DNA of 39,803 nucleotides from Gemmatimonadales bacterium (GCA_050733055.1 JBOHSI010000205.1:1-39803); one strand, 5' to 3'; positions 16,743-28,383 are shown, counted from the first letter of the stretch. Notes: generated by a model not told the origin, from the sequence alone. A program made the numbers and translations.

Positions 16743-16830
16743 GAGGCGGTAAGAGGCGGTAGGGGGCGGTAAGGGGCGGTACGTCTCTGTGCGCTTACCG
16801 CCTCCTACCGCCCCCTACCGCCTCCTACCG
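16737..16830. repeat. Palindromic array of 10-bp units TARGRGGCGG; likely bidirectional terminator
   Basis: Four direct units at 16740..16779 (TAGGAGGCGG TAAGAGGCGG TAGGGGGCGG TAAGGGGCGG) and about 3.5 inverted units at 16794..16830. By hand pairing, 16737..16773 pairs with 16794..16830: 37 positions, 2 mismatches, 1 G-U, 20-nt loop. Both convergent stop codons (TAG 16740..16742 and CTA 16825..16827) lie inside repeat units. Confidence 0.8.
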
Positions 16831-18051
16831 AATCACGTCCAGCTGCCGGTCGCGTCGTCGCGCCAGCCAGTACAGGGTCAGCCCGAGCAGCTGCGTGGCC
16901 CCGCTCCAAACCCACGCCTCGGCGATCGAGCGCGTGCGCGCGAGCCAGCCCCACACCGATTGGCCCGCGACGCCGCCGACACTTGCGAACATGGAGTCGA
17001 GCGAGATGATCGTCGCCCGCTGCGCGGATGGGATGTGCGCGTTGAGATACGCCTGCTTCACGGGCATCGCGACCCCGAGGGCGATGCCGTACACTAGGTA
17101 GAGGGAGACCACCAGGTAGAAATTTGTCAGGAGGCCGCAGGCCACGGCCATCACGGCCTGCACGGCGACCGAGAGTATCAACAGCCCCGTGCGCGTGCGC
17201 ACCAGGCGCGACAGTGGACCGACCAGTGCGTTGCCCGCGATCAGGCTGAGCCCCACGAGCGAGCTGATGACGCCGTTCACCCACACCAGTTCGCGGCCCA
17301 GCAGGTCGAGGAAGTAGCGCTGCCAGCTGTAGAACCCGAAGATCATGAAGCTCATCGAGACGAGCGAGGCGAGCATCACCGGTCGCACGACCGGGTGGCT
17401 CAACCCGTAGTTCATTCCCTCCACGAACACCCGTCGCATCTCTGCTGGCACGCGCTTGAGCTTGAGCGCCCGCGGTGTGTACCCGAGCTCCGGCATCGCG
17501 CGCCACGCCAGGACGAACAGGGGTACGACGATCGCAGCCCGCACCAGGTACGGGACATACAGGTGGATCTGCCCCAGCAGCCCGCCGCTGATCGTGCCGA
17601 CCAGCATCCCCGCGCCGAAGAACATCTGCCCCTTCGCGAAGACGTGCTCGAGCGGCCCGGTGTACCCGGTGGCTTTGAGGGCGTCCACGAGCCACGCGTC
17701 CACTGCGCCCGTATAGAACGTGTAGCCGAGCCCGAGAAAGACGGACACCCACACGAACGCCCAGAATCCCCACCCACGCCACGCGCTCGCGACGTACAGC
17801 AGCGTCGTGGTAAAGAGCGTCGCGAGACAGAGCAACAGCGAGACCCGTCGCCCAACCGTGTCCGCCACGACACCGGTCGGGATCTCGAACACCATCGACC
17901 CCAGCGTGAACGCGGCGTTGGTGAGCATCACCTGCAGGATGTCGAGCCCGGCACCCATCTTGAACAGCGTGTCGATGCCCCAGATCAGCGACATCGCGAA
18001 GTTGAAGAGCGCGGTGATTGCGAAGTAGGTGCGGATGATCCGCGTGCTCAC
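16825..18051 (-). CDS. MFS transporter
   Basis: 408-aa ORF, polytopic. 'ADTVGRRVSLLL' MFS loop motif. GTG start. Confidence 0.8.
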   Translation of the reverse strand: MSTRIIRTYFAITALFNFAMSLIWGIDTLFKMGAGLDILQVMLTNAAFTLGSMVFEIPTGVVADTVGRRVSLLLCLATLFTTTLLYVASAWRGWGFWAFVWVSVFLGLGYTFYTGAVDAWLVDALKATGYTGPLEHVFAKGQMFFGAGMLVGTISGGLLGQIHLYVPYLVRAAIVVPLFVLAWRAMPELGYTPRALKLKRVPAEMRRVFVEGMNYGLSHPVVRPVMLASLVSMSFMIFGFYSWQRYFLDLLGRELVWVNGVISSLVGLSLIAGNALVGPLSRLVRTRTGLLILSVAVQAVMAVACGLLTNFYLVVSLYLVYGIALGVAMPVKQAYLNAHIPSAQRATIISLDSMFASVGGVAGQSVWGWLARTRSIAEAWVWSGATQLLGLTLYWLARRRDRQLDVIR

Positions 18052-18126: not shown

Positions 18127-19029
18127 TCATGGCAGGTTCGCCCGGAGCCACTCACGCGCGATCGTCCTGATGTCGCGATGCCGCACGTCCGCGTCGGCAT
18201 TGAGCCGGCGCATCTCCGCATCCGAGAGCCGATCTGCCAGCTCGTCGAGAGCCGCCGTGACACCGGGATGGCGCTTCAACACCTCGGCCCGGATCACGGG
18301 CGCCGCCTCGTAGGGCGGGAAGTAGTGTCGGTCGTCCTCGAGCGCCACGAGATCGAGCGCCTCGATCTGGCCGTCGGTCGAGTTTCCCGCGATCAGATCC
18401 ACCCGTCCGTCGGCGAGAGCGCGATAGGTGAGGCCCAGGTCCATCGCGGTCGGCGGCGCGGCAAGGGTGAGGCCATACGTCCTCGCGAGCCCCGCGAAGC
18501 CATCCGCCCGCTCGAGGAACTCGTAGCCGAACCCGGCGCGCCACCCCGGCGCCACCCGCGCGACATCCGACACCGTCTTAAGCCCGTGCCGCTCGGCGTC
18601 GCGGCGACGCACCACGATCGCGAACGTGTTGTTGAACCCGAACGGCTTGCCCCACACGATCCCGAAGCGCTCCCGGTACTCGGCCGCGACCGCCCGGTAC
18701 ACGCTGTCCCGGTCCTGCACGGGCGGGTGCTTGAGCACCGCGGTGAACGCCGTGCCCGTGTACTCGACGTACAAGTCGATCCGCCCCGACGTGATCGCCT
18801 GGTGACACACGAACGTGCCTCCGAGGTGCAGTCGGCGCCCTACCGGCATGCCGGTCCGGCGCTCGATTTGCTGCGCCACGATCTCGGCGAGCAGATCGGA
18901 CTCCGTGAAGTTCTTCGCGCCCACGACGACGCGGTCCCGACGGCTGCAGCCGGCGGCGAGCACCAGGGCGGCACACCCAAACCGGAACCACCGACCGCCC
19001 GGCCGGCCGGCCGCCTGACCGCCTCTCAT
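18127..19029 (-). CDS. Osmoprotectant/quaternary-amine ABC transporter substrate-binding lipoprotein (OpuC/OsmF-like)
   Basis: Internal ATG (MRGGQAAG...) making an ATGA overlap with the permease stop. Lipobox-like 'VLAAGC'. 'VVVGAKNFTESDLLAEIVAQ...IDLYVEYTGT' is typical of OpuAC-fold glycine-betaine-type binding proteins. Confidence 0.75.
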   Translation of the reverse strand: MRGGQAAGRPGGRWFRFGCAALVLAAGCSRRDRVVVGAKNFTESDLLAEIVAQQIERRTGMPVGRRLHLGGTFVCHQAITSGRIDLYVEYTGTAFTAVLKHPPVQDRDSVYRAVAAEYRERFGIVWGKPFGFNNTFAIVVRRRDAERHGLKTVSDVARVAPGWRAGFGYEFLERADGFAGLARTYGLTLAAPPTAMDLGLTYRALADGRVDLIAGNSTDGQIEALDLVALEDDRHYFPPYEAAPVIRAEVLKRHPGVTAALDELADRLSDAEMRRLNADADVRHRDIRTIAREWLRANLP

Positions 19030-19664
19030 TTCGGCCGCCACCCGAGCCTCCGCTCCGCCAAGCCGAGGAGCCCGTCCGCCGCGAGCGCCAGCAGCGCCGC
19101 CGGCAGTGCCCCGGCGAGGATCAGCGTGTCGTTCACCATGGCCACGCCGCGGAAGATGTACTCGCCGAGGCCGCCCGCACCTATCGCCGCCGCGATGGTC
19201 GCGGTGCCGACACTCACCACCGTGGCGACCCGGACACCCGCGAGGATCACCCCGAGGGCGAGCGGCAGCTCGACCATGAGCAGCAGCTGGCGGTCCGTCA
19301 TGCCCATCCCGCGCCCGGCGTCCCGCACCGCAGGGTCCACACCGGCGATCCCGGTGTACGTGTTCCGGACGATGGGCAGCAGCGCGTACAGCACCAGCGC
19401 CACGATCGCGGTGCGCGCGCCGATCCCACCGATGAAGGGAAGCGGGATGAGGAACCCGAACAGCGCGAGACTCGGAATCGTCTGGAATACGTTCGCGAGC
19501 CCGAGCACCGGGCCACGCCACGCCGGTCGGCGCGTGAGCAGGACGCCGAGCGGCAAGCCGATGGCGGTCGCCGCCCCCGTGGAGATGGCGACGAGGTAGA
19601 TGTGCTGCCAGAACAGGGCGAGCGCCTCACCGGAGTTCTGCGCATAGAGCTGAAAGAGCCTCAT
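19026..19664 (-). CDS. ABC transporter permease (OpuCB/ProW-like)
   Basis: 212-aa ORF. BPD-transporter EAA-like region 'VDPAVRDAGRGMGMTDRQLLLMVELPLA'. Confidence 0.8.
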   Translation of the reverse strand: MRLFQLYAQNSGEALALFWQHIYLVAISTGAATAIGLPLGVLLTRRPAWRGPVLGLANVFQTIPSLALFGFLIPLPFIGGIGARTAIVALVLYALLPIVRNTYTGIAGVDPAVRDAGRGMGMTDRQLLLMVELPLALGVILAGVRVATVVSVGTATIAAAIGAGGLGEYIFRGVAMVNDTLILAGALPAALLALAADGLLGLAERRLGWRPK

Positions 19665-19668
19665 ACGT

Positions 19669-20397
19669 TCACGCGGCTGCCATGAACGCCTGGCACTCCG
19701 GGTGGTCCGCCGCGCGGAACTCCTCTGGCGTCCCCAGAAAGACCAACCTGCCCCCGTACATCAGCCCGATCCGGGTGGCGAGCATGAGACCCTCGCGCAC
19801 GTCGTGGGTCACGAACACCATCGCCTTGCCGAGGCGCCCCTCGAGCGAGCGGAACTCGCGCTGCAGCTCCACCCGCGTGATCGGGTCGAGCGCGCCGAAC
19901 GGCTCGTCCAGGAGCAGGAGCGTCGGGTCGGCGGCGAGCGCCCGCGCCACACCGACACGCTGGCGCTGCCCGCCCGAGAGCTGATGCGGGTAGCGCCCGG
20001 CGAACACCTCGGGATCGAGCCCCACCAGCGCGAGCAGCTCGCGCACCCGCGTCGCGATCCGCGGCGCGGGCCACCCCTCGAGCCGGGGCACGAGGCCCAC
20101 GTTGTCTCCAACAGTGAAGTGCGGGAACAGCCCGATCTCCTGGATCACGTACCCGATCCGGCGCCGGAGCCGCGTCACGGGGACGGCCACGGTGCGCTCG
20201 CCCGCGACGCGCACGTCCCCCGCCGTAGGCTCGAGCAGCCGGTTGATGAGTTTGAGTGTGGTCGTCTTCCCGGAACCGCTGCGGCCGAGCAGGACGAGCG
20301 TCTCCCCGGCGCCTACCGTGAACGACACCCCATCCACGAGGGCTCGCCCGGTCGGCAGTTCATAACCGAGGCCCCGCACCTCGAGCGCTGCGGTCAC
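19669..20397 (-). CDS. ABC transporter ATP-binding protein
   Basis: Walker A 'GRSGSGKTT', signature 'LSGGQRQR', Walker B 'LLLLDEP'. The GTG at 20397 is preferred because it forms a GTGA overlap with the upstream methyltransferase stop. The track ORF extends to 20451. Confidence 0.8.
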   Translation of the reverse strand: MTAALEVRGLGYELPTGRALVDGVSFTVGAGETLVLLGRSGSGKTTTLKLINRLLEPTAGDVRVAGERTVAVPVTRLRRRIGYVIQEIGLFPHFTVGDNVGLVPRLEGWPAPRIATRVRELLALVGLDPEVFAGRYPHQLSGGQRQRVGVARALAADPTLLLLDEPFGALDPITRVELQREFRSLEGRLGKAMVFVTHDVREGLMLATRIGLMYGGRLVFLGTPEEFRAADHPECQAFMAAA

Positions 20398-21332
20398 CGG
20401 AGCCCGGCCAGGGCCATCAGGAAGCGGTCGTCGTCGCTCCGGCCCTGCCACTGCGCACCCAGGCCGGCGTCGGAGAGAATCCGGAGGAAGGTGTCCGGGG
20501 CGTACTTATACGAGTGGTTCATGTCGAGCCGGTCGCCGCGCTCGAGCCGCAGCGTTTCGCCGCCCATCTGCACGTCGATCGGTTGCGCCGCGCGGAAGTG
20601 CTTGGAGATGAAGTGCAGACCCGGCAGCCGGGGATCGCCCGCGGCCTCGAACACGAGCTCGCCGTCCTCGTCCCGGATACCCACCGCGTGCAGCGGCGCC
20701 CAGGCGAAGCGGCGGTTCAGCGGGTTGTCGTAACCGGCGAGCGTGGTGTCGCCCGCGTAGAGCTCGCCGTCCACGAGCAGCCGGTCGCCGGGCCGGAGCA
20801 GGGCAGCCAGTTGGCGTGCCTGGGCGATCGGATCGAACGCGCCCAGCGTATTACCGATGAGTAGGACGAGGCGCGGCGCACTCTCGGCCTCGGCCGCGAG
20901 CGCCGCGAGGTGCTCCAGCTTCGTGAAGTCGGCCTTGATGCCGTGGGCCGGGAGGCCGGCCCGAAGCGCGCCGCCGCACGCCATCTCGAGCAGGGCCTGG
21001 CTCGTATCGACGGGGACGTACGCCAAGCGCACACCGTGTTCGCGCAATGCCTCGAGCAAGATCAGGTCCTTGTCTCCCTGTCCCGAGCCGAGGCTGAGCA
21101 CTTCGAGGGGGCCGGGCGAGAAGCGGCGGGCCAACTCGCCCGCCGAACGCGCGATGAGGGAGCGCGACCGCACGAAGTTCCGGTACGCGCCGTCCGAGCA
21201 GAGCGCGAGCCAGGCACGCACGGACAGCGGGAACCAATAGAAGAACTTCTCCGCGAGGCGCCGCGCCTCGAAGGAAGCAACAAACTCGTCCGCGAGCTCG
21301 TTCTCGGTGACGAGCGTTTCGATCGGGATCAT
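20394..21332 (-). CDS. EgtD-like SAM-dependent methyltransferase (Methyltransf_33 / histidine N-alpha-methyltransferase family, divergent)
   Basis: 312-aa ORF. The family layout is recognisable by eye: 'VLSLGSGQGDKDLILLEAL', 'YVPVDTSQALLE', 'LLIGNTLGAFDP', 'GYDNPLNRRF', 'MNHSYKYAP', 'DDRFLMAL'. Several substrate-pocket positions differ from canonical EgtD (for example 'GNTLGAF' versus 'GSTIGN'). Confidence 0.55.
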   Translation of the reverse strand: MIPIETLVTENELADEFVASFEARRLAEKFFYWFPLSVRAWLALCSDGAYRNFVRSRSLIARSAGELARRFSPGPLEVLSLGSGQGDKDLILLEALREHGVRLAYVPVDTSQALLEMACGGALRAGLPAHGIKADFTKLEHLAALAAEAESAPRLVLLIGNTLGAFDPIAQARQLAALLRPGDRLLVDGELYAGDTTLAGYDNPLNRRFAWAPLHAVGIRDEDGELVFEAAGDPRLPGLHFISKHFRAAQPIDVQMGGETLRLERGDRLDMNHSYKYAPDTFLRILSDAGLGAQWQGRSDDDRFLMALAGLR

Positions 21333-21366
21333 CCGCGCCTCTTCATTAGGCGGTCAGACTTAGTGG

Positions 21367-21395
21367 TTGACGGGCCCGACGGCAACCCGTAGGAT
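21367..21395 (+). promoter_or_regulatory. Candidate sigma70-like promoter (TTGACG-17 nt-TAGGAT) for the small-peptide operon
   Basis: TTGACG at 21367..21372, an exact 17-nt spacer, TAGGAT at 21390..21395. This is about 45 nt upstream of the ATG at 21441, in the 108-bp divergent intergenic region. Confidence 0.45.
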
Positions 21396-21440
21396 TGTAC
21401 GAACAGCCGTCTTTGAATCACTCTCACGCAGGAGGATCAG

Positions 21441-21533
21441 ATGCAGATCGTCGAGACGCAGGAACTCGTGCCCAGCTGTCATCGTCCCGAAATCATCGAG
21501 ACGAGCGAGCTGCAGCCGACCTGCCACTCCTGA
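21441..21533 (+). CDS. Putative RiPP precursor peptide, 30 aa: MQIVETQELVPSCHRPEIIETSELQPTCHS (not in supplied ORF track)
   Basis: Hand translation. AGGAGG at 21430..21435 lies 5 nt before the ATG, and the TGA is at 21531..21533. 24 of 29 sense codons after the ATG end in G/C, matching the genomic coding bias. There are two tandem 12-aa repeats, IVETQELVPSCH and IIETSELQPTCH. It sits immediately upstream of the DUF692/MNIO-like operon. Confidence 0.6.
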   Translation: MQIVETQELVPSCHRPEIIETSELQPTCHS

Positions 21534-21545
21534 GGGTGCGGCTGA

Positions 21546-22505
21546 ATGCGCCCGGGGGCCCGGACTGATTTCGGGCCCCCTCCGCGTTTCATAACGTCCG
21601 AACCCCGTCTCGGGTTCGGCGCGTGGGCGGTGGGGGGCGAGGGGTGGGGAACGCCAGCAGACGAGCGCGACCGCACCGCCGCCGTCGAGCGAGCTGTCGA
21701 GCGCGGCATCGACTTCTTCGATACGGCGCCCACGTACGGCGACGGTGCCTCGGAAACCCTGCTCGGCCGGGCCCTCCGGCCCTACCGCGAGCAGGTCACG
21801 ATCGCCACGAAGGTCGGGCCCTACCACGAGCCGCGCCGATCCCTCGAGGCGTCGCTGCGCCGCCTGGCGTGCGACCAGGTGGATCTCGTCCAGCTGCACG
21901 AAACACTCGACGGCTGGGAGTGGCGGCTGGAGAAGCTCCATGCGTTGCAAGAGGAAGGAAAGACCGTCGCCATCGGGCTCTGCAACGCCACCCGCCGACA
22001 GCTCGCCCACGCGCTCGAGATCGCGCCGGTGGTCACCTGCCAGGCGCCATACAACCTGTTCGACCGCGACGTCGAGCAGCGGGAGCTGCCGCTGTGCCGC
22101 CAACGCGGGCTCGGCTTCCTCGCCTATCGCCCACTCGCCTCGGGGCTTTTGACCGGCAAGTACGCCATGGTTGCGATCGTGCTTGCGGGCGCGCGAGACG
22201 CCCGGCAGGTGGACGAGAACGCGGCGGCGCACGCACGACGGCTCACCCCGCAGGAAGTCGCCGCCATCGACGAGATCGTGGCGGAAGTGTTCCGGCCCGC
22301 GCGCGCCACCGAGCGGGCGCACGCGCTCGCCGCGAGCTGGGGTATCCGCGAGCGGTTCATCGTCGAGCGGCTCGACGGGGCGACGACCTACGAGGCGATC
22401 GCGGCCGTGTGGACGGACACGGGTGAACGACCGATGATCGCAGCCCAAGTCAAGGTGTTCGTCGACCAGTTACGGGAGCAGGAACTCGTTGAAGCTGAGA
22501 GCTGA
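21546..22505 (+). CDS. Aldo/keto reductase with a C-terminal PqqD/RRE-like extension
   Basis: AKR tetrad context is present: 'FFDTAPTYGDG' (D, Y), 'IATKVG' (K), 'LVQLHE' (H). GAGGGTG lies 7 nt before the ATG. The barrel looks shortened after 'SGLLTGKY'. The last ~70 aa, 'IVERLDGATTYEAIAAVWTDTGERPMIAAQVKVFVDQLREQELVE', resemble a PqqD-type winged helix. Confidence 0.65.
   Translation: MRPGARTDFGPPPRFITSEPRLGFGAWAVGGEGWGTPADERDRTAAVERAVERGIDFFDTAPTYGDGASETLLGRALRPYREQVTIATKVGPYHEPRRSLEASLRRLACDQVDLVQLHETLDGWEWRLEKLHALQEEGKTVAIGLCNATRRQLAHALEIAPVVTCQAPYNLFDRDVEQRELPLCRQRGLGFLAYRPLASGLLTGKYAMVAIVLAGARDARQVDENAAAHARRLTPQEVAAIDEIVAEVFRPARATERAHALAASWGIRERFIVERLDGATTYEAIAAVWTDTGERPMIAAQVKVFVDQLREQELVEAES
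21554..21580 (+). promoter_or_regulatory. Perfect 9-bp GC stem-loop after the peptide ORF (attenuator or mRNA-stability element candidate)
   Basis: GGGGGCCCG (21554..21562) pairs with CGGGCCCCC (21572..21580) around the 9-nt loop GACTGATTT, followed by TCCGCGTTTCAT. It lies 21 nt after the peptide stop and within codons 3-12 of the next ORF. Confidence 0.45.
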
Positions 22506-22511
22506 CGGCTG

Positions 22512-23300
22512 ATGGCTGCTTTGATGGTTGGCGCGTTCTACAACCCCCACCTCGGCGGCGAGCTCGCCGAGGCGACCGGCATCGACCATCTGGCCATGGC
22601 CGACCCCCCGGCGCCCACCGATCCGCACTGGCCCGTCATCCAGCAGCGCTATACCCTGCTGCTTCACGACTACCTCGGCCAGCTCTCCGAGCCGCTCGAC
22701 GAGCGCTCCATCCAGCGGGCGCGCGCGCTCGCTGATCTGTATCGCTCGCCGTGGGTCGCCGAGCACTTCCAGTGCCTGCACACCGAGGATGGCGCCTACA
22801 ACCTGAACTACGTGTTCCCCCCGCTGTACACGGAGGAGTTCCTCGACCGCTTCGTGCGAAACGCGACTGCGCTCAAGGCCCGGCTCGACCAGCCGCTCGT
22901 GATGGAGAACATCCCCGGTTTCTTCGACGTGCAGGCAAGCCAGATGCCGGAGCCGGTCTGGCTGCGTCGCTTCTTCGAGACGACGGAGGTCGGGTTCCTG
23001 CTCGATTTGCCGCACGTCTGGCTCGAGGCACACTATCACGACATGGCTCCCGAGCGCTGGCTCGCCGAGTTCCCGCTCGAGCACGTCGTGGAGCTGCACG
23101 TCGCAGGCGTCGAACAAGACGACGACCTCGAGGGCCCGTGGATCGCTCCCGCCGAGCCGTCGAACGAGATGCTTGACTTCCTGGCCACCACGGTCGAGCG
23201 CTGCCCCAAGGCGAAAGCGGTGACGTTCGACGCGTTCTCACCCTCCCTCACCGGCGACGTCTTGTTTCGGAGTGTCGAGCGGATTCGAGCGGCGCTGTGA
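22512..23300 (+). CDS. DUF692 / MNIO-like (MbnB/TglH-type) TIM-barrel protein, divergent
   Basis: 262-aa ORF starting 6 nt after the AKR stop. DUF692-like landmarks by eye: 'SPWVAEHFQC', 'VFPPLYTEEFL', 'PLVMENIPGFF', 'GFLLDLPHVW', 'VVELHVAGV', and C-terminal 'KAVTFDAF'. Confidence 0.55.
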   Translation: MAALMVGAFYNPHLGGELAEATGIDHLAMADPPAPTDPHWPVIQQRYTLLLHDYLGQLSEPLDERSIQRARALADLYRSPWVAEHFQCLHTEDGAYNLNYVFPPLYTEEFLDRFVRNATALKARLDQPLVMENIPGFFDVQASQMPEPVWLRRFFETTEVGFLLDLPHVWLEAHYHDMAPERWLAEFPLEHVVELHVAGVEQDDDLEGPWIAPAEPSNEMLDFLATTVERCPKAKAVTFDAFSPSLTGDVLFRSVERIRAAL

Positions 23301-24064
23301 GCGATCGCCGGCTGCAGGATCAGGTCATCCGTGCGCTCGCCGATGCTCCGTACCGAGCCTCGCCCGAGTGGCGGCGCGGCGCGCTGGCCGATCCGGAGCG
23401 TGTCGAGCGCTACGCGCGATTCCTCGCACGGCATTTCTACTACGAGCGGATCGTCCACTTCTTCAAGTACTCGGGCGCCCTGGCGCGCATCACCGGCCGG
23501 CGGCCCGAGGCCGTCCTCAGGCGGCCGGGATTCGAGGCGCTGCTTTCCGCCATCGTGCTCGGGAGCCGCGAGAGCGCGCGCGCGGTGGCGCGGCTCGTGG
23601 CCGAGTATGTGTCCGAAAACGATGCGGGCATTGCCTATGTGCAGGATCTCCTGCGCTACGAGCGGACGATGATGGCGGTCGAGGCTGGGCCGCGGGTGTG
23701 GCGAGAAACAGGGAAGGGGGAGGGGGGAAAGGGGGAGCGTGGGCTGCCTGAGACCGTGGAAGGAACGGTGCTGCTCGAGCTTAGCTACGACCTCCCGGCG
23801 GTGTTGCCCAAGTTGTTGCAGCCCTGGACCGAAGTGCCGCAGGCGCCGCAGCGGCCCGTGCGGCTGCTCATCGCGCGCTCGCCGCACGGGCGGGTCGCTG
23901 TCGCGCGTAGCGATGAGGGGGTGGCTGCCGTGCTCGAGCTGGCCGACGGGCGGCGTACCCTGGCGGATCTGGCGCGGGCGGCCCGCCTGGAGCCAGCGGT
24001 AGTGAAGGAGATGCTCCGGGGGCTCTTCGATCTCGGCGCCGTGCGGTTCTCGACGGGGAGTTGA
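23297..24064 (+). CDS. Partner protein of the DUF692-like enzyme with C-terminal RRE/PqqD-like domain
   Basis: 255-aa ORF. GTGA overlap with the upstream stop. The C-terminal 'VAAVLELADGRRTLADLARAARLEPAVVKEMLRGLFDLGAVRF' resembles a PqqD-type peptide-binding winged helix. A low-complexity 'GKGEGGKGERG' insert is present. No other family was recognised. Confidence 0.45.
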   Translation: MSDRRLQDQVIRALADAPYRASPEWRRGALADPERVERYARFLARHFYYERIVHFFKYSGALARITGRRPEAVLRRPGFEALLSAIVLGSRESARAVARLVAEYVSENDAGIAYVQDLLRYERTMMAVEAGPRVWRETGKGEGGKGERGLPETVEGTVLLELSYDLPAVLPKLLQPWTEVPQAPQRPVRLLIARSPHGRVAVARSDEGVAAVLELADGRRTLADLARAARLEPAVVKEMLRGLFDLGAVRFSTGS

Positions 24065-24132: not shown

Positions 24133-24537
24133 TTGAACGCCCGCTCGACAGCCCTGTCGCTCGCCACGGTGGCCGTCCTCTCGGCGTGCGGCGGCGCGAG
24201 CAGCCAGGCGAGGAGTCGCGAGCCCGCACCAGCGCGCAGCGGCGACGTCGTCACGAGAGAGGAACTCGAAAAGAGCTCGTCCAACTCCAGTCTGTACGAG
24301 GCCCTCCGCAGTCTCCGGCCCAACTGGTTCCGCAAGATCCCGACGACGCTTCGCCCCCAGGCGGAAGGAGACATCGTCGTCTACCTCGACCAAAGCCGCC
24401 TCGGCGGCCTCGAGTCGCTGCGGACGATCTTCGTCTCGTCCGTCACGACGGTGAGGTATTACAGCCCGTCTGAGGCCCAGGGTCGTTTCGGTCTGGGACA
24501 CCTCCATGGCGCCATCCAGGTCAGCACGTTGCGATGA
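24133..24537 (+). CDS. Small lipoprotein with TonB-dependent-receptor plug-like domain
   Basis: TTG start with CAGGAG 6 nt upstream. Lipobox 'VLSAC'. 'VVTREELEKS...LYEALRSLRPNWF...IVVYLDQSRLGGLESLRTI...VRYYSPSEAQGRFG...GAIQVST' follows the plug-domain pattern. It is a paralog of 25969..26358. Confidence 0.5.
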   Translation: MNARSTALSLATVAVLSACGGASSQARSREPAPARSGDVVTREELEKSSSNSSLYEALRSLRPNWFRKIPTTLRPQAEGDIVVYLDQSRLGGLESLRTIFVSSVTTVRYYSPSEAQGRFGLGHLHGAIQVSTLR

Positions 24538-24577
24538 GGGCCCTGCTCGGCCTCGCGGCGATGGGGCTCGCGCCCCG

Positions 24578-25102
24578 ATGACCGCCACGATTGCCCGTCC
24601 CGAGGCCACCGAGTACGCTCCGTTCTACGGCACGTACGTGTCCAAGGTGCCGGAAGGCGATCTCCTCGAAGCGTTGGAGGCACAAAGACGCGAAACCCAG
24701 GCACTCCTGAAGGCCATCCCCGAGGCGAAGGCGCTGCACCGCTATGCCCCGGGGAAGTGGAGCGTTAAAGAAGTCGTCGGCCACCTGGCGGACACCGAGC
24801 GTGTGTTCTGTTACCGTGCGCTCCGGTTCGCGCGCGGCGACCAGACGCCGCTGGCGGGGTTCGACGAGAAAGCGTACGTACCCGCGGGCGGGTTCGATGC
24901 CCGCCCCGTGGCGGACCTCGCAGCGGAACTGGACGCGGTGCGGCGCGCGACGATCGCGCTGCTCGGAAGCCTCGACGCCGCAGCGCTCGCACGCCGGGGC
25001 ACGGCCGACGGCAAGGAGGTGTCGGTGCGGGCCCTAGCCTACATCATCGCCGGCCACGAGCGCCACCACTTCGCGATCCTGCGGGAGCGCTACTTGACAT
25101 GA
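24578..25102 (+). CDS. DinB-family (DinB_2) metal-dependent protein
   Basis: Internal ATG (MTATIARPEATEYAPFYGTY...). 'KWSVKEVVGHLADTERVF' and 'IAGHERHHFAILRERY' supply the DinB His triad context. Confidence 0.7.
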   Translation: MTATIARPEATEYAPFYGTYVSKVPEGDLLEALEAQRRETQALLKAIPEAKALHRYAPGKWSVKEVVGHLADTERVFCYRALRFARGDQTPLAGFDEKAYVPAGGFDARPVADLAAELDAVRRATIALLGSLDAAALARRGTADGKEVSVRALAYIIAGHERHHFAILRERYLT

Positions 25103-25506
25103 AGCCGGCGGTGGGACAGCGGGCCCACCGCACCCTGACGCTCGAGCCCGAGCACGTCGCGACTTACGCCCGGCTCACCGGCGACTACAACCCGCTGCAC
25201 TTCGACGCGGCGTTCGCCGCTCGGACGACGTTCGGGAAGCTCGTCGTCCAGGGCGGCCTCACCACGGGATTGCTGCACGCGCTCGTCGCCACGGACTTGC
25301 CCGGTCCAGGGACCGTCTTCCTGAGCCAGAACTGGACGTTTACGGCACCCGTTTTCATAGGCGACACGATCACGGCGGAGGTCGAGGTCGTGAGCGTGCA
25401 TGAGAGCAAGCCGGTGTGCCAGCTGCGGATCCAGGTGACGCGCCAGACGGGGGAGACGGTGCTCGAAGGCGAGGCGTGGTGCTATACGTTCGACGGCGGG
25501 GCGTGA
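25099..25506 (+). CDS. MaoC-like (R)-specific enoyl-CoA hydratase / hotdog-fold dehydratase
   Basis: 135-aa ORF. ATGA overlap with the DinB gene. 'YARLTGDYNPLHFDAAFA...FGKLVVQGGL' is the MaoC hydratase motif. Confidence 0.75.
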   Translation: MKPAVGQRAHRTLTLEPEHVATYARLTGDYNPLHFDAAFAARTTFGKLVVQGGLTTGLLHALVATDLPGPGTVFLSQNWTFTAPVFIGDTITAEVEVVSVHESKPVCQLRIQVTRQTGETVLEGEAWCYTFDGGA

Positions 25507-25968: not shown

Positions 25969-26358
25969 CTACCGCTTCAGCGTCACCACGATCGCTGGGC
26001 CGTCGGTGGGCCCATAACGACTCGCCGCCTGGTTCCCGCTGAGCCAGCGTAGCTCGAAGACGCGCTCGGCCGGAATCGTCTTTAGGTAGTCCACGTCGCC
26101 CGCGTCGACGTCGTTCAAGTACACGTGCACCTGCGCCGCTTGGAGAGGGTCGTCGGGTCTTCCCGACAGGACCAGCTCGCGCGACTTCAGCCAGCGGGGC
26201 CGCAGCCTCTGCACGGCGTCGTACGCGGTACCGACGTGCGGCTGCGCCCGCTCGATTTCCTCGGCCGTGATGACGTTGCTGCGCCGCTGCGCTTGGAGCG
26301 GCGCGGCGGCGAGCACGACGGCGCCCAGCACCAGTACCGTTCGCGTAAGCGCGAGCAT
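25969..26358 (-). CDS. Small secreted protein with TonB-dependent-receptor plug-like domain (paralog of 24133..24537)
   Basis: The ATG at 26358 (MLALTRTVLVLGAVVLAAAPLQA|Q) has GGGAGGGG 4 nt upstream. 'VITAEEIERAQ...AYDAVQRLRPRWL...VHVYLNDVDAGDVDYLKTIPAERV...SGNQAASRYGP...AIVVTLK'. Confidence 0.5.
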   Translation of the reverse strand: MLALTRTVLVLGAVVLAAAPLQAQRRSNVITAEEIERAQPHVGTAYDAVQRLRPRWLKSRELVLSGRPDDPLQAAQVHVYLNDVDAGDVDYLKTIPAERVFELRWLSGNQAASRYGPTDGPAIVVTLKR

Positions 26359-26388
26359 AGCCCCTCCCTTCAATGTCGCCGCGACCGG

Positions 26389-26497
26389 CTAGTGCCGTTC
26401 CAACTATTCGCGCCAAGTCATCGGACGCCCGGGGTGGCCACCGGCCCGCACACGATGCTCTCGGCAGGTTTGGCGAATCAAGTTGGAACGGCACTAG
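26389..26497. repeat. 109-bp element bounded by perfect 17-bp inverted repeats (MITE-like or structured RNA)
   Basis: CTAGTGCCGTTCCAACT at 26389..26405 and its exact reverse complement at 26481..26497. The stem can extend with ATTCGC/GCGAAT after a 2-nt bulge. An internal 10-bp palindrome GGTGGCCACC lies at 26433..26442. The right arm contains the ABC exporter stop codon. Confidence 0.7.
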
Positions 26498-28383
26498 CGG
26501 TACCCGGCCGCCTGGAGAGAAAACAACTCGGCGTACAGCCCGCCTCGCCCGACCAGCTCCTCGTGCGTGCCCTGATCGACGAGCTCGCCGCCCTGCAACA
26601 CCAGAATACGATCCGCCATGCGCACCGTCGAGAAGCGATGCGAGATGAGGACCGCCATGCGCCCTTTGGTGAGCTCGGCGAACCGCAGGAACACCTCGTA
26701 CTCGGCGCGGGCGTCGAGCGACGCCGTGGGCTCGTCGAGGATCAGCACCTGGGCGTCCCGCATGTAGGCGCGCCCCAGCGCCACCTTCTGCCACTCGCCC
26801 CCTGACAGCTCCACGCCCCCCTCGAAGCGGCGGCCGAGCATCTGGTCGTAGCCCTTCTCGAACCGCCCCGCCACCGAGTCGGCGAGGCTGCGGCGCGCCG
26901 CCTCCCGCACCCGCGTGTCGTCGTCCAGCGCCTCGACTTGGCTCACCCCGATGTTCTCCTTGAGGATGAAGTCGTAGCGCACGAAATCCTGGAAGATGAC
27001 GCCGATGTTCTTGCGCAGGCTCTCGAGGTCGTACTCGCGCAGGTCCACGCCGTCGAGCAGGATCCGCCCCTCGTCCGGATCGTACAGCCGGGCGAGCAGC
27101 TTCACGAGCGTCGTCTTTCCCGCCCCGTTCTCCCCCACCAGCGCGATGCGCTCGCCGGGCTCAAACTTGAACGTGAGGTGCCGCACCGCCCAGCGCTCCG
27201 AGCCGGGGTAGCGGAACCCGACGTCCTGGAACTCGAAACCGCGGCGGATCGACACCGGCACGGGCCACGCCCCTGAGCGCGAGACCACCCGCGGCTGGAC
27301 GTCGAAGAACGTGAACAGGTCGGAGAGGTACAGGCTCTGCTCGAACACCTGCGACAGCGACAGGAGGATCCGCTGGATCAGGTCGCGGCTCTGCCGGAAC
27401 GAGCCGGCGAGGAACGTCAGCGCGCCAATCGTGAAGCGGCCCAGCACGGTGAGGTAGATCGTGATCGCGTACGCGCCGTAGTAACCCAGGGTGCCGATCG
27501 TGACGAACAGCGTCGAGACCAGGTTCCGCTTTACCGCGAGGCGTTTGTTCGCCTCGTAGAACTCATCGGACAGCCTGGCGTAGCGTCCGACCAGAAAATC
27601 CGACAAGCCGAAAAGCTTGACCTCCTTCGCCATCTCGTCCGACGCCCCGACGTAGCGCAGGTAGTCGAGCAGCCGCCGCTCGGGGGTCCATTGAAAGAGG
27701 AGCGAGTATCCGAGCGCGGCGAAGTGCGTCTCGCCGAGGAACGACGGCAGCACCGCGACGACCAGCAGCAGCAGGAGCCATGGCAGCTGCACCAGCAGGA
27801 CGCCGGCGAGCGAGGCCAGCGTGACCATGTCCTGGCCCGTCGAGAGCAGCAGCGCGATGAGCCCGATCCGGCCCACCGTCTGGCGCCGCGCACGCTCGAG
27901 GTGGTCGTAGGTTTCGGCGTCCTCGTACTGCGCGAGGTCGAGCGTGGCCGCGTGCTGCATCAGCCGCACGCTGATGCGGTTCGAGAACAGATCGCCGAGC
28001 AGGCTCTCGAGCAATGACGAGAGACGGGCCAGGCCTTCCCCCGCCACGGCGATGCCGAGCTCCAGCGCCACCAGCCCGCCGAGGTACCACCAGTCCACAG
28101 GGTCGCCCGCCTCGCGCGCCTGCACGGCCGCGATCGCCCCATCGATGATCAGTTTTCCGATCCACAGCACTGCGAGCGGGACGAAGGAGCGGATCGCCCG
28201 CAGGGCGAGGATCGCGATGGTGTACCCGCGGTGCGTCCGGTAGACCAGCTTGAGCAGGGGTGGGACGTACTTCAGCGCCTGGAGTCGCTCGCCCCAGGTG
28301 GGCGGCTTGCCGTCGCCTCCCGAGAGCGGGCTCCTGGGGCGCGGGAGAATGCCGTGCGAGATGAACCGCGGTGCCGCCGTCAC
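26494..28383 (-). CDS. ABC exporter, fused permease/ATP-binding protein (MsbA/ABCB-type)
   Basis: 629-aa ORF. N-terminal 6-TM region. Walker A 'GENGAGKTT', signature 'LSGGEWQKV', Walker B 'VLILDEP'. Confidence 0.85.
   Translation of the reverse strand: MTAAPRFISHGILPRPRSPLSGGDGKPPTWGERLQALKYVPPLLKLVYRTHRGYTIAILALRAIRSFVPLAVLWIGKLIIDGAIAAVQAREAGDPVDWWYLGGLVALELGIAVAGEGLARLSSLLESLLGDLFSNRISVRLMQHAATLDLAQYEDAETYDHLERARRQTVGRIGLIALLLSTGQDMVTLASLAGVLLVQLPWLLLLLVVAVLPSFLGETHFAALGYSLLFQWTPERRLLDYLRYVGASDEMAKEVKLFGLSDFLVGRYARLSDEFYEANKRLAVKRNLVSTLFVTIGTLGYYGAYAITIYLTVLGRFTIGALTFLAGSFRQSRDLIQRILLSLSQVFEQSLYLSDLFTFFDVQPRVVSRSGAWPVPVSIRRGFEFQDVGFRYPGSERWAVRHLTFKFEPGERIALVGENGAGKTTLVKLLARLYDPDEGRILLDGVDLREYDLESLRKNIGVIFQDFVRYDFILKENIGVSQVEALDDDTRVREAARRSLADSVAGRFEKGYDQMLGRRFEGGVELSGGEWQKVALGRAYMRDAQVLILDEPTASLDARAEYEVFLRFAELTKGRMAVLISHRFSTVRMADRILVLQGGELVDQGTHEELVGRGGLYAELFSLQAAGYR

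Follow-up and report, generated by a model that had tools for sequence, protein, structure and literature searches.

A stretch of 39,803 nucleotides (nt) from a Gemmatimonadales bacterium (GCA_050733055.1 JBOHSI010000205.1:1-39803), referred to here at its full length as the window, contains between positions 21,367 and 24,064 a 30-codon open reading frame (ORF) followed by three closely spaced genes, and the question that this locus raises is what, if anything, is made from so short a peptide. An earlier note had seen here a candidate undescribed system for a peptide synthesized on the ribosome and then modified post-translationally (RiPP), in which a peptide with Cys-containing repeats is accompanied by an aldo-keto reductase (AKR), by an enzyme resembling the DUF692 family of multinuclear non-haem iron oxidases (MNIOs), and by a partner protein bearing a RiPP recognition element (RRE). 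Our analysis makes it likely that the cluster produces a RiPP of a new MNIO subfamily, and that the Cys of each Cys-His motif in the peptide is the residue that is modified. The features on which the argument turns, including a methyltransferase gene on the opposite strand, are these (E, expectation value):

20394-21332, minus strand: divergent gene for an EgtD-fold (Methyltransf_33) methyltransferase dependent on S-adenosylmethionine (PF10017, E = 4.8e-24)
21367-21395, plus strand: promoter-like site, TTGACG-17 nt-TAGGAT (sigma-70-like), the sole consensus match in 21250-21700
21430-21436, plus strand: Shine-Dalgarno sequence AGGAGGA, 4 nt 5' of the peptide ATG
21441-21533, plus strand: precursor peptide gene, 30 amino acids, with two repeats ending P-S-C-H and P-T-C-H
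21546-22505, plus strand: AKR gene, 319 amino acids, internally deleted in the window and with a small C-terminal helical domain (PF00248, E = 4e-46)
21554-21580, plus strand: GC-rich RNA hairpin of 11 bp, directly 3' of the peptide gene and overlapping the first AKR codons
22287-22502, plus strand: C-terminal domain of the AKR, about 72 amino acids, weakly PqqD-like (sub-threshold PqqD match)
22512-23300, plus strand: MNIO (DUF692) family oxidase of a separate subfamily, 262 amino acids (PF05114, 96.1 bits)
23297-24064, plus strand: MNIO partner, 255 amino acids, with an N-terminal helical domain and a C-terminal winged-helix (RRE-like) module (fold match to TglI)

The Cys-His repeat peptide and its setting

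A genome scan with the window MNIO protein returned 80 loci, mostly from Gemmatimonadales, with some from Gemmatimonadaceae and Terriglobales and three on contigs binned as Actinomycetota. Gene presence was counted in the 66 loci having at least 2.7 kb upstream, and the partner gene was counted in 62 loci. The set that is constant together with the MNIO gene consists of the peptide gene (66/66), the methyltransferase gene (66/66) and the partner gene (62/62). The AKR gene, placed between the peptide and MNIO genes, is present in 60 of the 66 and belongs to a variable set that also includes an alpha/beta hydrolase, an LssY_C protein, a beta-propeller protein and a VirJ-like hydrolase. A constant core with variable extras is what RiPP clusters with lineage-specific tailoring usually look like.

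The window precursor (MQIVETQELVPSCHRPEIIETSELQPTCHS) is one of a family in which the repeat unit reads [IV][VI]-E-[T/A/M]-x-E-L-x-P-[ST]-C-H. Most Gemmatimonadales loci encode a peptide with two such units, whereas the peptides of the 'Actinomycetota' and Terriglobales loci have three and those of the Gemmatimonadaceae loci four. Across the precursors of related loci the Cys is always followed by His, and the last Cys-His either closes the peptide or has S, A, T, V, R, L or I after it. In a comparison of 49 distinct DNA sequences for the two-repeat peptide, variable sites were found at the third position of 25 of the 30 codons, at the first position of 11 and at the second position of 7, and the invariant residues (Glu, Leu, Val, Pro and Cys) are specified by several synonymous codons. 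Variation that is synonymous and biased to the third position indicates purifying selection on the peptide gene. The earlier note had read the small ORF as a gene with two Cys-containing repeats and had asked for a conserved small ORF in homologous operons; an ORF of the same type was found in all 66 loci, and this recurrence and the synonymous variation bear that reading out. Individual peptide sequences occur as exact matches on up to 847 public contigs, where they are annotated only as 'hypothetical protein', and a Pfam and NCBIfam scan of the peptide gave no matching model. The N-terminus (MQIVETQE) is without a hydrophobic segment, there is no Sec signal peptide, and the precursor has no separate leader.

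One metagenomic contig carries a variant of this peptide. In locus L081 (positions 217-282; Logan ERR14790938) the small ORF reads MQNAKLEVETVETEQIRPQ-TGA-CAC-TGA (ending VETEQIRPQ-TGA-CAC-TGA), with an in-frame TGA at the exact position of the Cys codon in P-x-C-H, followed by a His codon and then a stop. A hairpin starts 10 nt after the TGA, and an MNIO-partner fusion (P0249) is encoded downstream, its MNIO part being 46% identical to that of the window. The TGA may represent a selenocysteine variant of the Cys-His motif or a plain mutation, as judged from the sequence of this single contig. A metagenome scan with P0249 for more loci of this kind returned only an ordinary Gemmatimonadales locus (L084), and among the protein representatives none is closer than about 50% to P0249.

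The signals for expression of the operon were recovered where the earlier note had placed them, as were its ORFs and their spacings: 12 nt between the peptide and AKR genes, 6 nt between the AKR and MNIO genes, and a 4-nt GTGA overlap of the MNIO and partner genes, all four being co-oriented. The overlap points to translational coupling of the MNIO and partner genes. The promoter-like site is the one consensus match observed in 21250-21700, as against 0.0 expected from shuffled sequences, and throughout the Gemmatimonadales loci its hexamers and spacer are kept 5' of the peptide ORF. GGAGG is found at the same distance from the start codon in essentially all related loci. We regard the peptide gene as both conserved and strongly expressed. 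The region from the promoter through its spacer and beyond (21367-21411) hardly varies among the Gemmatimonadales loci and contains an inverted repeat, GACGGC (21378-21383) and GCCGTC (21406-21411), in the spacer and the sequence downstream, as well as ACGGG...CCCGT arms between the -35 and -10 hexamers, and these repeats look like an operator for some regulator.

The GC stem-loop that had been described as following the small ORF is present, although it lies within the first codons of the AKR gene and is not an intergenic element. The 76-nt hairpin region has a predicted fold of -40 kcal/mol (z = -3.5). A hairpin stands immediately 3' of the peptide stop codon in every related locus, with stem sequences that are unrelated in distant loci, and a short T-run follows it in the Terriglobales loci, which lack the AKR gene, and in L061; a T-run 3' of the peptide-gene hairpin is frequent in AKR-less loci. 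The hairpin may be an attenuator or a stabiliser of the mRNA.

One could envision from this arrangement that the small ORF is an attenuation leader, in which Cys and His codons are sensed and the hairpin gates the enzyme genes, with the enzymes acting on some other substrate. The ORF is short and stands at the 5' end of the operon, and the stable hairpin directly 3' of it in every locus, with a T-run in some as in an intrinsic terminator, fits such a role. The ORF, however, contains just two to four Cys and His codons, which are never clustered, and the conservation of E, T, E, L and P, with synonymous variation, equals that of Cys and His, which attenuation would not require. The number of repeats varies while the unit is kept, folding of the hairpin revealed no alternative anti-terminator pairing, and adjacent small peptides are known substrates of MNIO-partner pairs. 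An Rfam scan of the whole window gave no match, and the window thus holds no known riboswitch or leader. We consider a leader function of this kind extremely improbable.

The MNIO and its partner protein

The middle gene of the operon had been proposed to encode a divergent DUF692 member, and the Pfam search agrees: PF05114 is matched with 96.1 bits against a cut-off of 25, whereas the generic xylose-isomerase barrel (PF01261) reaches only 15.1 bits against a cut-off of 31.1. The protein falls below the cut-off of every curated subfamily, scoring 104 bits with the NCBIfam model for ApyH (NF050151; cut-off 400), 87 with that for BufB (310) and 53 with that for HvfB (360). By sequence, its nearest solved structure is TglH (E = 4.5e-8). 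A search of 1.84 billion representative proteins with the window MNIO gave 31 at E <= 1e-30, mostly fragments of its own family, and beyond these the identity drops to 46%, 36% and about 30%.

An alignment with 54 generic MNIOs was used to compare individual residues. The window protein retains H52, H85, E132, N133, D165, H168 and H196, and has D240 in place of a conserved Glu. H52, H85, E132 (plus N133), D165 and H196 fall in columns that are at least 96% conserved among the 54 proteins. The Asp-x-His that follows the H-x-A-G strand, with Asp in 52 and His in 50 of the 54, is gapped in the window protein, whose segment in this region (VEQDDDLEGPWIAPAEPS) contains no His, and the same columns are gapped in the homologues P0241, P0244, P0254 and P0268. 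By analogy with MbnB, the retained residues would be those of the first two iron sites and the Asp-x-His would belong to the third. With the first two metal sites kept and the third missing, a dinuclear iron site is predicted, and the iron cofactor of this MNIO is probably dinuclear.

In some relatives the MNIO and its partner are fused in one protein (P0249, P0274 and P0282). A further group of MNIO-like proteins, P0254, P0268 and P0274 (from L082, which is GCA_038221925.1, L083 and L088), is 34-38% identical to the window enzyme and has lost most of the His/His/Asp/His ligands. The gene for P0254 (36% identical) still has a Methyltransf_33 gene on one side and a partner gene on the other, and the 75-nt intergenic gap at that locus holds no Cys-His peptide. 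To judge from their ligands, these three proteins may be non-catalytic paralogues.

The protein encoded downstream of the MNIO (locus tag ACREMM_11285) had been described as an RRE-bearing partner that ends in a PqqD-like winged helix. Its identity as a partner stands on its fold; for the PqqD-like end, no PqqD match was obtained, and the winged helix is recognised by fold only. In the AlphaFold model (predicted local distance difference test score, pLDDT, 79), an N-terminal helical domain is joined by a disordered Gly-rich linker (residues 134-154) to a C-terminal module made up of strands 158-162, 188-194 and 200-205 and helices 207-216, 222-228 and 233-245. The best match of the model in the PDB is TglI of the TglHI holoenzyme (8hi7_A; E = 8.8e-4, probability 1.0), and the second-best is NGO1945, the DUF2063 prototype. 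At the sequence level the matches are weaker: 35.9 bits with the ApyI model NF050149 (E = 4.6e-9; cut-off 200), 13.5 bits with HvfC (cut-off 142), NGO1945_C at E = 0.06 only, and otherwise weak winged-helix or helix-turn-helix profiles. A Pfam scan of the protein found no domain above threshold, neither DUF2063 nor PqqD. The assignment as an MNIO partner protein is supported by the modelled fold. The partner gene lies 3' of the MNIO gene in all 62 loci counted, directly adjacent in 34, separated by an inserted gene of ~1.2 kb in 23 and by other inserts, a beta-propeller protein among them, in 5.

The methyltransferase, the reductase and the flanking genes

The gene content given in the earlier note was incomplete, since it overlooked the divergent Methyltransf_33 gene. 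This gene is adjacent and divergent in each of the 66 loci, those of the AKR-less Terriglobales included, and the same holds for L085/L086 and L082. It spans three phylum-level labels without exception, remains adjacent even where all other flanks differ, and is thus a more constant member of the cluster than the AKR gene. The family profile spans the full length of EgtD structures (E = 1e-15). Orthology with EgtD was considered and excluded, because the score against the NCBIfam model TIGR03438 is far under the cut-off (69.5 versus 290.9 bits; the cut-off for EasF is not reached either) and the motif is altered: the whole family has an invariant GNTLGAF in place of the GSTIGNL of EgtD, and Ser stands at the position of the Glu in the T-E-V-S-C-K-F segment of EgtD. 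The EgtD residues that are altered (those of GSTIGN, and the Glu) presumably contact the alpha-amino group and the imidazole.

The AKR, which the earlier note had counted as a core component, proved to be accessory, as it is missing from L042, L054, L075-L080 and the L085/L086 lineage. In the window its best PF00248 stretch covers model positions 1-201 of 291, and the catalytic tetrad (D59, Y64, K89 and H118) can be read in the sequence. The protein has nevertheless suffered an in-frame loss of about 54 residues at roughly 22164-22175, between ...LLTGKY and IVLAGAR...; in comparison with the 373-residue orthologue of the nearest relative (L001), these residues are swapped for AMVA. The junction is taken from the protein comparison, as a MAFFT alignment of the DNA left the gap not cleanly placed. 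Segments that are at least 90% conserved in an alignment of 36 full-length orthologues are included in the lost stretch. The deletion is either real in this metagenome-assembled genome or an artefact of assembly, and unless it is an artefact, the window AKR is probably impaired or inactive. With its AKR deleted and probably inactive, the window locus would run an AKR-less pathway, like that of the Terriglobales loci.

This defect raises the possibility that the locus as a whole is decaying or non-functional in this genome, or that the deletion arose in assembly, and that nothing is made. Among the 120 homologues listed, the window AKR is indeed the only one below 342 residues, the other 119 ranging from 342 to 407. 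The deletion is in frame, however, the peptide, MNIO, partner and methyltransferase genes of the window are intact and 87-95% identical to those of L001, and other lineages dispense with the AKR altogether. Decay of the locus in this genome is confined to the AKR, and we find it very unlikely that the cluster makes nothing.

The AKR had also been said to end in a PqqD-like winged helix. Among the AKR orthologues in these clusters the tail is a conserved domain, and the PqqD resemblance is consistent: PF05402 is matched at 16.7-20.3 bits (cut-off 23.4; E = 7e-4 to 0.0095), with sub-threshold matches in 33 of the 37 sequences in the alignment of orthologues, over model positions 21-67, the helical part, only. 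As to a winged helix, the model of the tail (pLDDT 88) is all-helical and a fold search against the PDB gave no significant match, the best having E about 1. The RRE-bearing proteins LynD and TruD were among the fold matches at a probability of 0.2-0.3 only, and a profile search against PDB sequences returned chance matches only, such as prohibitin. An RRE-like nature of the tail is plausible from its sequence. In the Gemmatimonadaceae AKRs an extra segment of about 20 residues lies upstream of this domain.

Several further genes were found to flank the core of the cluster in the window:

16825-18051, minus strand: major facilitator superfamily transporter, 3' of the importer genes that follow
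18127-20451, minus strand: betaine-type ATP-binding cassette (ABC) importer, co-directional with the methyltransferase gene (Pfam ABC_tran, BPD_transp_1 and OpuAC)
about 18127-19030, minus strand: OpuAC-family lipoprotein of this importer
19026-19664, minus strand: permease of this importer
19669-20451, minus strand: ATPase of this importer
24506-25102: DinB_2 protein
25099-25506: MaoC dehydratase

Most Gemmatimonadales loci have the importer next to the methyltransferase gene, and in L037, L041 and L073 it has been rearranged yet lies close by; it is absent from the Terriglobales and 'Actinomycetota' loci. It is possibly associated with the cluster, without being part of its core, and the persistence of these genes near the cluster through rearrangement hints that the product or a related compound bears a quaternary-ammonium group.

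One possible hypothesis for the constant presence of the methyltransferase and the nearby importer is that the peptide is a scaffold from which a small thio-histidine betaine is made, in the way of pearlins, pyrroloquinoline quinone or mycofactocin. The MNIO would link or rearrange the His and the sulfur of the Cys; once a peptidase had released the residue, the EgtD-fold enzyme would N-methylate it, to give a betaine-like compound related to ergothioneine or ovothiol that is imported by the betaine-type ABC system. The nearest solved relatives of both subunits, TglH and TglI, do act on a scaffold peptide. The Cys has an invariant His beside it, and the only structural relatives of the methyltransferase are histidine N-alpha-methyltransferases. 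The residue after the last Cys-His is variable or absent, the methyltransferase gene is co-directional with the OpuAC-type importer, with the linkage outlasting rearrangement in the three loci named above, and a DinB_2 protein is encoded downstream. Against these points, the methyltransferase is far below the EgtD cut-off and the residues that presumably bind the substrate in EgtD are replaced (GSTIGN by GNTLGA, Glu by Ser). There is no C-S lyase and no conserved peptidase, and the importer and DinB are absent from the Terriglobales, 'Actinomycetota' and L085 lineages. The conservation of the whole repeat would suit a recognition segment under either model. On balance we regard a scaffold role of the peptide as unlikely. 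That the Cys-His units would be templated raw material for a sulfur-containing His derivative, in an MNIO-based counterpart of ergothioneine or ovothiol biosynthesis, is in our estimation distinctly unlikely.

Other neighbours were considered as members of the cluster and set aside. An ABC exporter (26494-28383) is 83-93% identical in close relatives only and absent from distant loci; being more conserved than the cluster genes, it appears to be a housekeeping neighbour rather than a dedicated exporter. The earlier statement that no protease or exporter lies inside the window operon was borne out. DinB, MaoC and the small downstream lipoproteins are not conserved outside close relatives. These lipoproteins are paralogous predicted proteins of 134 residues (24133-24537, plus strand, with the lipobox LSACGG; 25969-26373, minus strand) with no family match. 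The DinB_2 and MaoC genes lie between them, and the lipoproteins recur, in tandem or singly, near the cluster in close relatives.

The sampled loci differ in what is inserted into or placed beside the core. An LssY_C-domain protein is encoded between the MNIO and partner genes in L006 (6690-7985), with an insert of this size in 23 loci, and a secreted alpha/beta hydrolase between the AKR and MNIO genes in L047 (4836-5987), with an insert of this size in 12 loci. A beta-propeller protein (Vgb-lyase/SGL-like) and a VirJ-like hydrolase, the latter beside the methyltransferase gene, are also among the lineage-specific insertions, for which further coordinates are L062:6797-7828, L071:2043-2777 and L073:2629-3336. 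The inserted genes are candidates for processing or tailoring enzymes. The three Actinomycetota-binned contigs (L061, L067 and L069) carry the same cluster, with an MNIO 69-75% identical to that of the window and, in L067 and L069, three-repeat peptides ending in CHV; their sequences suggest mis-binning or horizontal transfer. In L085 (2362-8379) and L086, where the MNIO is 58% identical, the core consists of the methyltransferase, a three-repeat peptide, the MNIO and the partner, and is flanked by genes for a TonB-dependent receptor and an Fe/Mn superoxide dismutase. MsrPQ-like genes lie downstream of the cluster in L071.

A proposed pathway and its place among MNIO systems

We return to the reading that we prefer, in which the cluster makes a RiPP by modification of the Cys in each Cys-His motif. 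Most MNIOs that have been characterised act on Cys (table in PMC12452194). The first half of each unit, which is acidic (IVETxEL), would serve as an internal segment by which the partner's winged-helix module recognises the peptide, and the partner would present P-[ST]-C-H to the MNIO. With O2 and a probably dinuclear iron centre, the MNIO would oxidise each Cys, as known Cys-directed MNIOs do, to give a thiooxazole, an oxazolone-thioamide or another Cys rearrangement. The modified Cys and the invariant His would constitute an N,S-donor site, and two to four such units would yield a multidentate metal- or redox-active peptide. The invariant His beside the Cys and the presence of several units suggest a multidentate N,S ligand of this kind, and the product is plausibly a metal binder by analogy with other MNIO products. 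The methyltransferase would transfer one methyl group or several. For most lineages of the Gemmatimonadota type we propose that a carbonyl derived from maturation is reduced by the AKR, which its C-terminal domain would dock to the peptide or the complex. Peptide transcripts would be kept in excess over enzyme transcripts by the hairpin that follows the peptide gene. The TonB-dependent receptor and superoxide dismutase of L085/L086 and the MsrPQ-like genes of L071 suggest a metal or redox function. Both the chemistry and the biological function of the cluster, like the substrate of the AKR and the site of methylation, are what we infer by comparison with related systems.

Several points weigh against this proposal. 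The modification chemistry is deduced from family membership, and the window MNIO is only about 25-35% identical to any characterised MNIO. In addition to the Asp-x-His, the enzyme lacks two other conserved residues, an N-terminal Glu (Ala28 in its place) and an Asn (Tyr175 in its place), and with these residues missing its reaction may differ from all known ones. The core genes include no signal peptide, protease or dedicated exporter. The flanking genes that would speak for metal binding are limited to single lineages and are not conserved. Finally, the known members of Methyltransf_33 methylate the alpha-amines of free amino acids, not peptides.

The system closest in solved structures is TglHI of Pseudomonas syringae, which makes the pearlin 3-thiaglutamate: TglH and TglI are the nearest structures for the MNIO and the partner. 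As there, a Cys-directed MNIO (the Cys target being our deduction here) would act with a two-domain partner, and both precursors lack a signal peptide. The differences are considerable. Pfam scans of the neighbours, in the window and in selected loci, found no peptide aminoacyl-tRNA ligase (PEARL) or LanB-like enzyme that adds an amino acid. The Cys here is internal to a repeated P-[ST]-C-H, whereas tgl employs a single appended C-terminal Cys, and TglH retains a His-Asp-x-His segment where the window MNIO has none. The methyltransferase and the AKR have no counterpart in the tgl cluster.

ApyHI of Burkholderia, which makes aminopyruvatide (PMC11117315), provides the top curated models for both proteins, and the two clusters share a methyltransferase and a partner that is not of the DUF2063 type. 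The scores (104 versus 400 and 35.9 versus 200 bits) are nevertheless far under the equivalog cut-offs. ApyH targets the C-terminal Asp (PMC11117315), whereas the C-terminal residue here is variable or absent and the conserved candidates for a target are Cys and His. No P450 or B12-dependent radical SAM enzyme is found here, and ApyS is an MppJ-like C-methyltransferase, in contrast to the EgtD-fold enzyme of the present cluster.

BufBC and HvfBC (bufferins and oxazolins) and MbnBC (methanobactins) resemble the cluster in combining an MNIO and a partner with a small adjacent precursor that contains Cys, although the targets here are deduced. Their products are metal chelators, and precursors with repeated Cys motifs are known among MNIO substrates, such as those with EGKCG repeats (PMC12452194). 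A TonB-dependent receptor beside the core is a likeness to methanobactin clusters that is confined to one lineage here (L085/L086). Unlike these systems, the present one has no Sec signal peptide, no DUF2063 Pfam match, no DoxX and no separate leader; it has an invariant His after the Cys, its MNIO is without the third metal site, and the BufB and HvfB scores (87 versus 310 and 53 versus 360 bits) are well below their cut-offs. An EgtD-fold methyltransferase and an AKR are unreported for such clusters in the papers searched. With EgtD and EasF there is a fold-level match over nearly the whole methyltransferase, which differs from them in its sub-cut-off score, in having GNTLGAF for GSTIGNL, and in that its gene stands beside a peptide-MNIO operon and not beside egtB/egtC.

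In the literature searched we found no link of MNIO or DUF692 proteins with an AKR, an EgtD-type enzyme or Gemmatimonadota. A landscape survey of MNIOs, mainly of reference genomes, describes no such group, and its supplements have no AKR or Methyltransf_33 entry. A paper on DUF692 in Antarctic soil was considered as a possible description and rejected, because it concerns gammaproteobacterial six-Cys (bufferin-like) clusters. With neither a matching paper among those searched nor a curated model, the view that the system is undescribed has held.

Few sources of new peptide chemistry are growing as fast as the MNIOs, in which, to our knowledge, every subfamily newly characterised so far has brought a new reaction. 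The make-up of the present cluster is unusual in its leaderless, self-repeating precursor with an invariant Cys-His, its MNIO without the third metal site, its obligatory EgtD-fold methyltransferase and its AKR fused to a small docking-like domain. The cluster is abundant, one exact peptide being present on 847 public contigs, and its hosts are hard-to-culture soil Gemmatimonadota and Acidobacteriota-type genomes. The system comprises only three or four genes and is directly testable by co-expression; it may bring to light a new ligand or cofactor of soil bacteria that is based on Cys and His, and it bears on whether two metal sites suffice for MNIO catalysis.

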